DNA of 44,044 nucleotides. Source: a virus. Lineage: Duplodnaviria > Heunggongvirae > Uroviricota > Caudoviricetes. The notes under the pieces were generated by a model. It did not search any database. It was not told where the DNA came from and saw only the letters and a list, made by a program, of their open reading frames with translations. The stretch lies in the IMG/VR virus record IMGVR_UViG_2718218453_000006, one strand, 5' to 3'. Position numbers and translations under genes: made by a program. Below, piece by piece: positions 27,745 to 32,372 of this stretch (within the stretch, counting starts at the first letter, position 1; each line of letters opens with the position of its first letter).

Positions 27745-28251
27745 TTACTGTCCTAAAGCACTTTTTGCCAATATTGAAGCAATTGAAGCAAACGTCGGAT
27801 TTTCCAATAGCTTTTGCCAAAGGCTTTTAACCTCTGGATCATTGCAATGCTCTATAGCATCATGTAGTTGTTGAATGGTTATATTCTTTGTGATCGAATT
27901 ATCATTACCGGCTTGAAAATCACCACCAGCATTAATAGCACCGTTAAACGTCAAATGGGTCGTAATCTGCTTCGGCTTCTCTTTTACATCCAATGCCTTC
28001 ACTATCAATACCGCCAAATGTGAGTAGCCAGGGCAACCAACCTCGAGACTAATTTGCACCTCGTAATCAAGCACTTCAAATAGTCTTTCCCTGTCGACCA
28101 TTTTTTGCACAATGATATCGCCGATATTAAATGGGCATAAGTCACTTTCAATAGGAATATACAATCGGCCTTTAGATGAGTCACGTTGACCATAATAGGT
28201 GGATGAATTAAAGGTAAAAGTATCTGGATAGAAAAATTGATCTGGTCTCAT
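27745..28251 (-). CDS. hypothetical protein (168 aa), AT-rich moron between lysis and packaging genes
   Basis: ORF in strongly AT-rich DNA, with about 200 bp AT-rich upstream spacer and its own downstream hairpin. Confidence 0.5.
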   Translation of the reverse strand: MRPDQFFYPDTFTFNSSTYYGQRDSSKGRLYIPIESDLCPFNIGDIIVQKMVDRERLFEVLDYEVQISLEVGCPGYSHLAVLIVKALDVKEKPKQITTHLTFNGAINAGGDFQAGNDNSITKNITIQQLHDAIEHCNDPEVKSLWQKLLENPTFASIASILAKSALGQ

Positions 28252-29444: not shown

Positions 29445-29876
29445 TTACTCCTTAGAGCCACCAAATTTGTTACCGATTACTCGCATTGCAGCCCCACGAA
29501 TAGCATCGACACCGATCAGCCCCACGCCACCACCAATGGCAACAGAAAGCGATTTAGGCCATCCGACATACTCAAGAGCGGATGCAAAGGTCAGCGTCAG
29601 AGCGCCACAGAGCAAAATCTCGAGCGTTTTTCGCTTCCAGCCACCACCACCGCCAAAATAGGCGATGCGCAAACCAGCCATAACGATCGACATAATCACT
29701 GCCCCCAGCGGTGTGTCTCCACGCCACCAGCTCTGAAACAACTCCAGCCAGTCCGGCCAGGTATTTGGGTTATGAGGCATTTCGTCATCTCTCACCTCGC
29801 GATATTTGCGGGTGCTGTGTTGGAAATAAAAAGGCCACGCAACGTGGCCACCAGAATTATTTCCCCACCAGTTCAC
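29445..29876 (-). CDS. putative holin (three predicted TM segments); real start may be an internal Met near 29780
   Basis: Hydrophobic segments and position immediately upstream of the endolysin. Confidence 0.55.
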   Translation of the reverse strand: MNWWGNNSGGHVAWPFYFQHSTRKYREVRDDEMPHNPNTWPDWLELFQSWWRGDTPLGAVIMSIVMAGLRIAYFGGGGGWKRKTLEILLCGALTLTFASALEYVGWPKSLSVAIGGGVGLIGVDAIRGAAMRVIGNKFGGSKE

Positions 29877-29916
29877 TTACCTCTTTCACCGTCTGATTAA
29901 ACCGCTCTGACTCAAG

Positions 29917-30231
29917 TTAAACACCTAACGCCCGACGCCCCAGCGCCATTGCTGCTTTTATTGTGGAACCGAATCCCATAAAGAAATCAGCAACCAGATC
30001 ACCAGGTCGACTACTGGCATTGATTATTTGCCTGAGCATATCCGCCGGTTTCTCGCACGGATGTTTACCCGGGTAGAACTGAACGGGCTTATGCGTCCTG
30101 ACATCGGTATAAGGCACGGAGACTGATACGGAGAAATAGCGCCGGTGAGATTTAAACTCATCCAGCAATTCAGACGATTTGCAATTCAGTGAATCATGAG
30201 ATACCACCAACTGGTGGTAGGATTGTCTCAA
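29917..30231 (-). pseudogene. fragment of a beta-class N4/N6 DNA methyltransferase (C-terminal motif I region only)
   Basis: HPCEKP...GDLVADFFMGFGSTIKAAMALGRRALG matches the AdoMet-binding DPFxGSGTT region; no DPPY catalytic motif and only 104 aa. Confidence 0.6.
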
Positions 30232-30401
30232 CTAGTGAGCTTTATACATTTAAGTGCGATGCACAGATAATAACCACGCCAATGGAATATCACACACAAA
30301 ATTGATAGAACACTAACAATAAGCCACAAAATAATTCACAATTTATTTTTACAGTGGATAAGTAGCAAAGTAGTGAATGTGAATAACGGCTAACTAAGAT
30401 G

Positions 30402-30430
30402 AAACAAAAAGCCCCACAATATGTGGGGCT
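30402..30430 (-). terminator. rho-independent terminator after the Q-proximal moron pair
   Basis: Minus-strand hairpin GCCCCAC-atatt-GTGGGGC followed by TTTTTGTTT. Confidence 0.6.
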
Positions 30431-30488
30431 CCTTCGCGATTTATAGTAAAATAATCGATTCTCTAGCTGAAAAAATCTTTAAAAATTA

Positions 30489-30722
30489 TCAGCAATACGC
30501 AAGTTTTTTACCGTCATCCGGTACTAGTTTGATCACTACACCAGGATTCTTACGCTCTAACATCTGAGTTTGACTCCATGTAATACCAAAGGTTTCCATT
30601 GGAGATGCATTGCCAGCAAAGAGTTCGGCGACGACTTTAGCTGCCTCAATCTCTATCTGCTCATGATGTTTCATAAAAATCCCCTTGTTCAGCACTAAGC
30701 TGTAGTTGCTTCTTTGAAGCAT
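30489..30722 (-). CDS. small hypothetical protein (61-77 aa)
   Basis: ORF between the 180-aa moron gene and a terminator. Confidence 0.4.
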   Translation of the reverse strand: MLQRSNYSLVLNKGIFMKHHEQIEIEAAKVVAELFAGNASPMETFGITWSQTQMLERKNPGVVIKLVPDDGKKLAYC

Positions 30723-30865
30723 AAAGGCAACAAAGTTTGTTACCTGAAGATGTATAAAGTAAAGCGTAGTACATTTTGTGTGTGCTTTGTGTGGATCCAG
30801 ATTGCATCAACTAAAAGAGGTTTTCAATACTTTTGTAATGATTCTGGAGAAATTAAGAATCTAAC

Positions 30866-31408
30866 TCACACTGATTGGTTAGGTAAAACGCTCCTAAGCA
30901 CCATTGCGCAACCACCTCGTTCGTAATCAGCAATGTACTCAAAACCACTTTCAGTATAGTATCTTATTGCCCCATCAACTGGACTAACTAAAGCTATCGA
31001 ATCAATAGATTCACCCTGAAGGTTCAGAAATCGTGCATATGCAGAGAAGCAATCCAAAACGATACCAAGCATCTGATGGTCTAGGTCTTCATGTGCATCA
31101 TTACGTTTTTCCATCCAGCAAATATGCACCGCATTTTTCGGCTTACAGTAACACCCAAATGCAAATCCAATAGGCTCCCCACGATAATAAACAACTAGTT
31201 TTATCGGGTGTTCTTCCATCATATCCATAAACACTCGCGACTTTAGTCCGGGATCCCACCGCAGTTTATTGTTAGCCTTGAGGAACTCCATATCTTTTAG
31301 TACCAGCTCGTCGGCATATACGAGCCCTAACGACTTATGAGGGAAGCGCCCTTTTAAATACTCTGCAACATTTTTAAATACTGCTGTTTGGAAGGCTTGA
31401 AACATCAT
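30866..31408 (-). CDS. hypothetical protein (180 aa), weak acetyltransferase-like C-terminal signature
   Basis: AT-rich ORF immediately downstream of the late terminator; C-terminal ...AIRYYTESGFEYI resembles a GNAT-type tail (low confidence). Confidence 0.45.
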   Translation of the reverse strand: MMFQAFQTAVFKNVAEYLKGRFPHKSLGLVYADELVLKDMEFLKANNKLRWDPGLKSRVFMDMMEEHPIKLVVYYRGEPIGFAFGCYCKPKNAVHICWMEKRNDAHEDLDHQMLGIVLDCFSAYARFLNLQGESIDSIALVSPVDGAIRYYTESGFEYIADYERGGCAMVLRSVLPNQSV

Positions 31409-31484
31409 GTCGATCCAGACGAGACGAAAGTTTAAATTCTACCTACTCGCCGAATACCATTTCAATGCCACACATCTAAAATTC

Positions 31485-31512
31485 CGAAAAAAAACCCGCA
31501 CATCAGCGGGTT
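31485..31512 (-). terminator. late-operon terminator (tR'-like) downstream of the late promoter
   Basis: Minus-strand hairpin CCCGCTGATGTGCGGG followed by T8. Confidence 0.65.
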
Positions 31513-31557
31513 TTCTACTTTTTATTAAAGCCGGACACACAATGCCTATCATTGAGA

Positions 31558-31590
31558 AAATATTATCCATTTTTTTTGAAAAATGCAAGC
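31558..31590 (-). promoter_or_regulatory. late promoter (pR'-like) immediately downstream of Q
   Basis: Minus-strand TTGCAT-17 bp-TAATAT about 50 nt upstream of the terminator hairpin. Confidence 0.55.
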
Positions 31591-31619
31591 ATCATGTCGC
31601 CATTTTCGTCGAAAATCAT

Positions 31620-32372
31620 TCATCTCGTCACTTTCCTCAATTGTGTCTCAGCATACGCTTCTTCCTGCCAGCACTTTGTAACCAGTTTATCAATGACATC
31701 TGCATATCCTTTGTACCACTGATAATCCGTCAGGTCTGGTACCAGCTTCTGGACATGAAGCCGCGCCAGTGTGGTTGGTAAACGGCTAAACCGGTTTCCA
31801 TTGCAACGCCCACAAACCTTATAAACAGGCGTGCCATGAAGCCTGGTTCTTTTTTCATCCAGGACAATACCTTTACCCTTACACCCTCTGCACGCTGTGC
31901 TGACTTCTCCCTTACCATGACAATGCTGACACAGTTCCTTCACCCACTCTTCCTTGATAACAGATTCCCCGCTTCTGGAGTGTTTCACCACCTCGCGCAA
32001 TACATCATGAAATCCAGTACCAGCACAATGCTCACAGCGAGCCTTACTTGCCGCAGACCTGGAATAATCAGCAAAGGCAAAATTCACAAGGTAAGGAATG
32101 ATCTGTAGCCGGGTTTCTTCACTCAATTTGTTCAATGTCGGGTTATCCAGTGCCATCGCGTAATTGAGCAGACCTTCAATCGCAAACTGAGGATCCTGAA
32201 CACCAACTTTTGCCAGGAATAAGGCAAACCCAAGCGGTGCTTTCGACTGCACCATCCCCTGCGCAGCCATTACATCTGTAATTGTTAAACCACCAGAGCC
32301 TGTCGCCGGTGCGTCATCGCTCAATTTTGGAGATTTTGGGGAGTAATATTTCGGTAAGGCTTCAAGGTTCAT
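31620..32372 (-). CDS. Q-like late antitermination protein (250 aa)
   Basis: Cys-rich zinc-binding motifs (CEHCAGTG, CQHCHGKG, CRGCKGKG, CGRCNG); position before the late promoter/terminator and lysis genes. Confidence 0.75.
   Translation of the reverse strand: MNLEALPKYYSPKSPKLSDDAPATGSGGLTITDVMAAQGMVQSKAPLGFALFLAKVGVQDPQFAIEGLLNYAMALDNPTLNKLSEETRLQIIPYLVNFAFADYSRSAASKARCEHCAGTGFHDVLREVVKHSRSGESVIKEEWVKELCQHCHGKGEVSTACRGCKGKGIVLDEKRTRLHGTPVYKVCGRCNGNRFSRLPTTLARLHVQKLVPDLTDYQWYKGYADVIDKLVTKCWQEEAYAETQLRKVTR

Follow-up and report, generated by a model that had tools for sequence, protein, structure and literature searches.

In this Escherichia coli prophage, what does the cargo that separates the late-gene switch from the lysis genes encode, and why do its two genes occur together? 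The DNA analysed is the IMG/VR record IMGVR_UViG_2718218453_000006 (44,044 nt in full, here called the window; coordinates are window positions unless another locus is named), and the element in question is a cassette of two genes, for a 180-aa and a 61-aa protein, which lie on the minus strand together with their neighbours. A preliminary description of the same DNA had proposed an AT-rich two-gene moron between the late terminator and the lysis cassette. This proposal holds up, with a trough in GC content (0.34-0.44 over 30150-31650 versus about 0.46-0.60 in the segments on both sides), a promoter-like site and a terminator belonging to the unit, and a common minus-strand orientation. The unit is part of an E. 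coli prophage and sits between the late-gene switch and the lysis genes. By sequence comparison the two genes are inseparable across the whole of a tiny family, seen from the side of the larger, GNAT-fold protein. We tentatively read the unit as a self-contained, mobile lysogenic-conversion cassette whose GNAT-fold enzyme and mini-protein would act as a toxin/antidote-type module aiding the prophage. Our confidence is much higher for the anatomy of the cassette than for this mechanism, for which it is low to moderate.

Pairing and distribution of the two genes

Pairing was counted over every locus at which a member of the GNAT family has downstream sequence. At 18 firm loci and a further probable one, the GNAT gene had the gene of a small-protein homologue 3' of it, in the same orientation. 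The firm loci are the window, L002, L004 (Proteus), L007 (Pragia), L009 and L010 (Photorhabdus), L011 (Limnobaculum), L012 (Erwinia), L013 (Cronobacter), L014, L015, L016, L017, L026-L028 (metagenomes, deep clade), L030 (Xenorhabdus khoisanae) and L031 (Morganella), and they span the Enterobacterales and metagenomes down to 31% identity (L017). The probable pair, L018 (21% identity), has a small open reading frame (ORF) of the right size, strand and position that ends in ..KTAC and matches the small-protein profile weakly (P 0.003). No GNAT gene lacking its partner was found among these 18 firm loci and one probable locus, a small sample. The spacer between the two genes is 191 nt long in the window and ranges over 110-237 nt among the 16 loci measured, L026 not being one of them; L027 has a spacer nearer 300 nt.

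In every pair of homologues compared, the proportion of non-synonymous differences (0.04-0.24) lay far below that of synonymous differences (0.16-0.92, with synonymous sites often saturated); both ORFs are therefore real genes, and this substitution pattern indicates strong purifying selection on each. The small genes of Pragia and Limnobaculum are nearly identical (synonymous divergence dS 0.28, non-synonymous difference proportion pN 0.07), whereas the GNAT genes of the same two loci are synonymously saturated (pN 0.23), a mismatch that points to recombination with a breakpoint in the spacer.

Loss of the two genes is asymmetric. The small gene was found without any GNAT gene in three Xenorhabdus contexts, in a survey for which some loci had been chosen because their small proteins looked truncated. 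Two of these (L021/L022 and L023/L024) share 79-83% identity with the Photorhabdus protein over the helical core but end in another tail (..LDSRNEAQL..), and their upstream neighbour is an unrelated gene, belonging to phrog_17248 or encoding a DUF7823 protein. In the third (L029) the place of the GNAT gene is taken by a higBA module, with a parE/HTH pair behind, and the small gene is degraded, residues that are otherwise invariant being substituted from PME to PMK and from LER to LEC. All three orphans lie just after Q (L021/L022, 4613-5237; L023/L024, 4395-5150; L029, 2348-3918, in the coordinates of those loci), and these Xenorhabdus prophages show that the Q-to-holin slot collects toxin-antitoxin cargo. 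Orphan small genes combined with the lack of orphan GNAT genes form the pattern expected if the enzyme cannot be kept without its partner.

The family is very rare. The GNAT protein forms 28 clusters at 90% identity among 5.8 billion proteins and 36 representatives at 50% identity among 1.84 billion proteins (173-197 aa, bar a few fragments), and it was present in 5 of 185,579 species-representative genomes. The profile search with the small protein gave 45 clusters, all from the Enterobacterales. Within E. coli, a 1371-bp stretch covering the cassette occurred at 99-100% identity in 97 of 5426 complete genomes (about 2%), always as a single chromosomal copy; the carriers are mostly cattle-associated O157:H7 strains, plus ST167 and others. 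Among 50,697 phage records the cassette was found in a single one, vB_EcoM-689R6, and scans of viral contigs with P0061, P0069, P0071 and P0054 gave no match.

Where present, the pair occupies several kinds of site. It directly follows Q in the window, in Proteus, in the metagenomic prophage L015, in X. khoisanae and in Morganella. In Pragia it comes after the lysis genes and adjoins a pyocin S-like gene, in L014 and L002 it is placed within the tail-gene cluster before the tape-measure gene, and in L016 it adjoins a type I restriction-modification system. The 31%-identical pair of L017 lies directly upstream of the portal gene of a phage P2-like prophage (Ogr/Delta, portal, gpP-type terminase), and its neighbour in this portal-proximal region (3418-4386 of L017, minus strand) encodes a 322-aa putAbiC (PF16872)/AbiP-like membrane protein. 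Rousset et al. 2022 (PMC9122126) describe the cos-proximal gpA-gpQ region, by the portal gene, as a defence hotspot of P2, and their paper mentions no GNAT or acetyltransferase system. The probable pair of L018 stands beside umuDC and near an opposite-strand Q-like gene recognised from a cysteine-rich DnaJ-type match only. This range of sites argues that the cassette is horizontally mobile, in lambdoid and P2-like prophages alike, among hot spots already recognised for cargo and defence. Two smaller observations concern individual copies. The Cronobacter locus contains, upstream of the cassette (535-600 of L013), a 66-nt stretch 77% identical to the 3' part of Q (31659-31724 in the window), and that copy may therefore also lie downstream of a Q gene or remnant. 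In the Pragia prophage, a 433-aa pyocin S-domain protein and a 100-aa ORF are encoded between the cassette and the terminase genes (7444-9037 of L007), and the 100-aa ORF may be the immunity protein of the pyocin S-domain protein.

For the window, the preliminary description had placed the genes at the stx-type insertion site. The phage phiSTEC1575-Stx2k shares the backbone PerC-Dam-LexA-RusA-KilA-DUF968-Q with this prophage, and its Q-to-holin interval contains small ORFs, three tRNAs and stx2k; because a phage with the same backbone holds stx2k there, the cassette can be regarded as a moron at the stx-type site. Homology with other phages (Stx2c phages, SfV, mEp460, Ayreon) was confined to query positions 1239-1371, that is 31488-31620. 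This covers only the end of Q and the pR'-tR' segment, so the homology breaks exactly at the tR' terminator: these relatives share the Q-tR' junction without the cassette, which is found elsewhere in other prophages.

The two proteins and the control region between their genes

The gene of the 180-aa protein (30866-31408, minus strand; WP_021519681.1) falls in phrog_11949, a group of the PHROGs database to which no function is assigned. The protein had no Pfam or NCBIfam match at E<=1 and no PADLOC match, and a PDB sequence search with the family profile also returned nothing. Six distant members were equally without a GNAT-family Pfam match at E<=1, two of them giving weak, unrelated matches to DUF4087/DUF7355 and Pfk_N (E 0.08-0.16); among the UniRef cluster members, one has been named 'GNAT family N-acetyltransferase' automatically. 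The GNAT resemblance became clear in the structure model, in which the elements follow the order b1-a1-a2-b2-b3-b4-a3-b5-a4-b6-b7. A weak GNAT-like C-terminus had been noted before; the resemblance is real but its extent was understated, and in the model the GNAT fold spans the whole protein. Fold matches were as near to N-terminal/protein acetyltransferases and small-molecule GNATs as to GNAT toxins, the fold being no closer to toxins of the TacT/AtaT/KacT type than to RimI or NatD.

Candidate functional residues were sought in this fold. Glu100, at the end of strand beta-4, is nearly invariant in 41 sequences down to 18% identity. The segment SPVDGAIRYYTESGF aligns with motif B (..aairlYeklGF) so that Tyr151 falls on the canonical Tyr, although this match is weak (hhalign, P 0.005) and the probe was a generic, hand-written GNAT consensus; the most distant clade has lost Tyr151. 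In the motif-A loop, the six-residue length and the initial Arg102 are canonical, but the sequence R-N-D-A-H-E is acidic and distant members do not conserve it, and hhalign against the generic GNAT consensus did not recover motif A. The pyrophosphate loop of motif A is unrecognisable, and acyl-CoA use is therefore plausible at most. The 180-aa protein is, by its modelled fold, a catalytically plausible GNAT enzyme and a very divergent sequence orphan. Two other motifs were considered and rejected, namely H106-E-D-L-D-H111 (HExxxH-like) as a metal site, which is not conserved in distant members, and Q112-x-x-G115 as motif A, which lies inside helix a3 of the model and is likewise not conserved.

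The 61-aa protein (gene at 30489-30674, minus strand; WP_000680348.1) belongs to phrog_11292, again without an assigned function. Its length had been given as 61-77 aa: the shorter form stands, while the 77-aa form beginning at 30722 does not, for RefSeq and every homologue start at the methionine at 30674 (MKH/MTH), after the Shine-Dalgarno sequence AAGGGGA. The protein is acidic and showed no Pfam, NCBIfam or PADLOC match. Its AlphaFold2 model (predicted local distance difference test score, pLDDT, 77) has helices at residues 2-18, 25-28 and 33-42 and a low-confidence tail at 43-61, and it is thus modelled as a three-helix core followed by a disordered, Cys-bearing tail. Neither a sequence match nor a fold match (Foldseek) was found in the PDB, where the sole profile similarity concerned a coiled-coil-like N-terminal helix (E 0.16). 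The core is conserved as VAELFA..SPME.FG..W.Q...LER..P. A truncated XRE-type helix-turn-helix was considered for FG..W.Q...LER..P and rejected, there being no Pfam or Foldseek match and the protein being acidic. A tail cysteine is present in every GNAT-linked copy, often in an Ala-Cys context (for example ..LAYC, ..ACG, ..ALCC, ..AACGGIR, ..CLQHAR, ..VPCLTQH.., ..LTCRTTH.., ..AKCKTA, ..ECA and ..KTAC). The profile searches and structure prediction that the preliminary description had suggested for both proteins yielded a GNAT fold and a helical 61-aa core, but no curated family for either.

Each gene of the cassette is preceded by a promoter-like site. The first, P1 (TTGAAA-18-TAGAAT, 31436-31465, minus strand), had been named earlier as a possible promoter of the cassette; it has 10 of 12 consensus matches and lies 28-57 nt 5' of the 180-aa ORF. 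Scanning of the 2.2-kb region gave two promoter-like sites versus 5.1 expected from shuffled sequences, and the P1 match by itself is therefore not significant. It gains weight because its position is kept in homologous loci, a promoter-like site occurring at -57 to -63 from the GNAT-gene start codon in 6 of 12 of them, and because nucleotide homology with the Cronobacter copy, which runs from 31468 to 30505, begins 3 nt upstream of the P1 -35 element. At the level of sequence, a promoter of the cassette at this position remains credible.

The second site, P2 (TTGAAA-17-CAATCT, 30799-30827, minus strand), is the sole conserved island in a spacer alignment of seven loci, over which TTG...GCA..CTG is invariant. 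The loose pattern TTGnnn-N16-18-nAnnnT, which several spacers match more than once, was present at least once in 13 of 14 scanned spacers (Photorhabdus L009 being the one without a match), and for 11 of the 14 spacers its first occurrence fell 6-56 nt past the GNAT stop codon. The most distant loci come near the consensus, L017 with TTGACT-16-TAAGAT and L018 with TTGACC-17-TAGAAT. Between P2 and the small ORF follows a weak hairpin with a T-rich tract (30725-30745, minus strand; -9.2 kcal/mol, z -3.2), and most homologous loci have hairpins followed by a T-run at the same relative place, although their sequences differ. From the box and the hairpin with its T-run, the small gene therefore appears to have its own promoter plus a leader or leaky terminator. 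Alternatively, a short RNA of about 75 nt, ending at the same terminator as the GNAT gene, could be encoded in the spacer (30718-30827, minus strand). When the spacer is folded to minimum free energy, a UCUUC lying 5' of the hairpin base-pairs with the Shine-Dalgarno sequence of the small gene (z -2.3). Rfam models scanned over 29800-32000 gave sub-threshold matches around tR' and none in the spacer. A sigma-E reading of the spacer box was rejected, the AAC element not being conserved, and the opposite-strand reading was also poor. The cassette closes with the terminator t2 (30397-30434, minus strand), predicted previously and found here as a 13-bp stem (30434-30406) with six GC pairs and a T-run (-20.2 kcal/mol, z -4.4); a terminator follows the small gene by 12-57 nt in 11 of 12 homologous loci.

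Candidate functions of the pair

How might such a pair serve a prophage? We propose that P1, a GNAT-fold acyltransferase gene, P2 with its leader hairpin, the small-partner gene and the terminator would together form one cassette, which has entered the slot just 3' of tR' where sister phages carry stx as cargo. The enzyme would move an acyl group from acyl-CoA onto a cellular or phage target. The small protein would bind it, insert the Cys-bearing tail into its active-site or cofactor groove, and act as the cognate inhibitor or antidote made from its own promoter. The prophage could benefit from the pair through exclusion or abortion of superinfecting phages, or through addiction. In the lysogen transcription would start from P1 and P2. 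In lambda, Q-modified RNA polymerase reads through terminators; by this analogy it would, after induction, continue past tR' and across the cassette with its terminators as far as the lysis genes, so that transcription of the cassette would occur late in lytic growth as well as in the lysogen.

Several observations indirectly favour this toxin/antidote proposal, which is in line with the toxin/immunity or defence pair that the preliminary description had called conceivable: the pairing is obligate and the loss asymmetric, a promoter-like box is dedicated to the small gene, the small protein is modular, with a core reused beside other genes and a disordered tail that bears a Cys in each GNAT-linked copy, and GNAT toxins are among the structural matches. 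The neighbours at the various loci are also cargo, defence or toxin-antitoxin genes (putAbiC/AbiP-like, type I restriction-modification, higBA, parE, pyocin S-like). A number of points weigh on the other side. Neither protein, nor any of the distant homologues, matches a defence model of PADLOC-DB 2.0; the enzyme-first order and the long spacer are atypical of type II operons; a terminator-like hairpin stands upstream of the putative antidote gene; and the small protein is without an RHH or DUF1778 domain. The unrecognisable motif-A loop counts here as well. The isoelectric points of the enzyme family, mostly acidic to neutral (pI 5-6.7), are unlike those of tRNA-binding GNAT toxins, which are expected to be less acidic. 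The mosaic of Pragia and Limnobaculum, finally, argues against tight allele-specific co-evolution. A more specific version, a new two-component immunity or addiction module of prophages in which the enzyme is checked by or acts through the mini-protein, with the tail in the cofactor or substrate tunnel and a separate internal promoter and leader terminator, is possible but doubtful; the frequent Ala-Cys end of the tail resembles the beta-alanyl-cysteamine end of pantetheine.

The same obligate pairing would be seen if the small protein were not the inhibitor but the substrate. The GNAT enzyme would then acylate it on the tail Cys, a tail Lys or the N-terminus, and the modified mini-protein would be the effector, which might signal, exclude other phages or carry an activated acyl group. 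The cysteine, often next to Ala, is the one tail feature kept in all GNAT-linked copies, and the predicted flexibility of the tail is usual for substrates of protein acetyltransferases. The position of the cysteine varies, however, from the very C-terminus to sites 2-17 residues before it, not every tail contains a lysine (the Photorhabdus copies have none), orphan small genes persist without the enzyme, and there is no obvious reason for a dedicated promoter on a mere substrate; we consider this explanation unlikely. Somewhat less likely still is a role in lysogenic conversion in which the enzyme acetylates a host protein or a small molecule (an antibiotic, a polyamine or a toxic metabolite) and so raises the fitness of the lysogen, the small protein being a specificity or regulatory subunit and no inhibitor. 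Some eukaryotic Nat enzymes do work with small auxiliary subunits, the fold is equally near to N-terminal/protein acetyltransferases, small-molecule GNATs and toxins, the enzyme is acidic and the cassette occupies a classical slot for fitness genes. Against this stand the extreme rarity of the family and its confinement to prophage cargo sites, unusual for a generally useful detoxifying enzyme, and a neighbourhood of defence and toxin-antitoxin genes rather than metabolic ones.

AcrVA5 is a GNAT anti-CRISPR that inactivates a host immune protein by acetylation, and phage-borne GNAT proteins with an anti-defence role therefore exist. An enzyme acting in this way on a host immune protein, and expressed mainly through Q read-through in lytic growth, would suit the location of the cassette inside the Q-dependent late transcription unit. 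This we hold to be improbable: the promoter-like site and terminators of the cassette point to expression in the lysogen, copies also occur outside late operons (next to type I restriction-modification, and portal-proximal in the P2-like prophage with its Abi-like neighbour), and the need for a conserved partner is left unexplained. The last alternative is that two unrelated or decaying ORFs lie side by side by chance, for which it can be said that neither protein matches a curated family. Conserved pairing and purifying selection already effectively refute it: selection on both genes is strong with synonymous sites saturated, order, strand and rough spacing are kept in at least 18 loci across genera and insertion sites, and the structure models are confident.

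Returning to the toxin/antidote proposal, the cassette differs from the known systems to which it is nearest. In the GNAT/RHH type II toxin-antitoxin systems (TacAT, AtaRT, KacAT, ItaRT) the antitoxin lies upstream in one tight operon, whereas here the partner lies downstream, beyond a long spacer (110-237 nt where measured) in which a separate promoter-like box and a hairpin are found; the partner is acidic, lacks RHH and DUF1778 and matches nothing in the PDB, and the enzyme has no Pfam GNAT match and is not basic. With lambdoid morons the cassette shares the slot and backbone of the Stx2k phage, a deviant GC content, a promoter-like site and terminator of its own, and presence in only some related phages. 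Its cargo, however, is an intracellular enzyme with a mini-protein and not a secreted toxin or outer-membrane protein, and it is also found after lysis genes, in tail clusters, in the P2-like hotspot and beside restriction-modification genes. AcrVA5-type enzymes resemble it as small GNAT-fold enzymes on a mobile element; AcrVA5 acts alone, whereas the cassette has an obligatory conserved partner and looks built for expression in the lysogen. The L017 pair, upstream of a portal gene, is placed like the cargo of the P2 hotspot (old, tin and newer anti-phage systems; PMC9122126), but it matches no PADLOC model, that paper mentions no GNAT, and an anti-phage role is a candidate only.

The lambdoid Q-to-lysis slot carries Shiga toxin and other genes that alter the abilities of the lysogen, and in it both proteins have been annotated as hypothetical throughout. 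The GNAT fold and the moron concept are already known; the new elements are this family of GNAT proteins, the Cys-tailed partner that is obligate to it and the internal control region, which is conserved. No description of these was found in Pfam, NCBIfam, PADLOC, the PDB (by sequence) or the literature searched, and a search of the literature on the accessions, the PHROG identifiers and GNAT with prophage defence found no study of this pair. If the more specific version, a new two-component module, is true, the repertoire of GNAT toxins would gain a new effector/antidote pairing, and the stx slot as well as the P2 hotspot a new type of cargo. Two anonymous ORFs have in any case become a defined, cloneable and rare candidate for a new toxin/antidote or phage-exclusion system, with Glu100, Tyr151 and the tail Cys as the residues to mutate.

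Boundaries of the cassette and neighbouring features

From high to low coordinates the genes run RusA, KilA-N, DUF968, the Q antiterminator, the cassette, a methylase remnant, holin, lysozyme and Rz. The Q gene is the upstream boundary and the methylase remnant the downstream boundary, both lying outside the cassette. Q (31620-32372, minus strand) was identified by PF03589 (E 8e-53), phrog_127 and its RefSeq name, antitermination protein. Its protein also gave a sub-threshold match to the DnaJ CXXCXGXG zinc finger (E 2.8e-7, 31.1 bits versus a cutoff of 32.7), which reflects two CxxC..G pairs; the Q-like gene of L018 matches likewise.

Downstream of Q, the putative late promoter pR' (TTGCAT-17-TAATAT, 31560-31588, minus strand) was read from the letters and is below the scan threshold (3/6 and 5/6 matches). 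It falls in the stretch at query 1239-1371, where Stx2c phages, SfV and others match with 81-87% identity over their Q-tR' junction. The tR'-type intrinsic terminator follows at 31483-31514 (minus strand), with a stem at 31514-31491 and eight T residues (-15.9 kcal/mol, z -4.05); the records of SfV and Ayreon have a 'terminator' annotated on the homologous stretch.

On the other side, the methylase fragment noted in the preliminary description proved to be the 5'-truncated remnant of an N6/N4 DNA methylase gene (29917-30231, minus strand), covering PF01555 positions 156-209 of 221 and listed in RefSeq as a pseudogene 'missing N-terminus'. The metagenomic prophage L015 has the order Q, cassette, intact 348-aa methylase and holin, and the remnant in the window matches the 3' end of that intact gene. 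Between the remnant and the RefSeq holin start lies a GC-rich hairpin with a T-run (GGCCACGTTGCGTGGCC TTTTTATTTC, 29833-29849, minus strand), one more terminator for late transcription to read through. Further along, between Rz and the HNH/terminase genes, an AT-rich 168-aa ORF (27745-28251, minus strand; GC 0.31-0.42) had no Pfam or PADLOC match. In an O157:H7 comparison genome (L001) an iss/bor lipoprotein gene occupies the region of this ORF on the opposite strand, and 27745-28251 is probably another moron slot.

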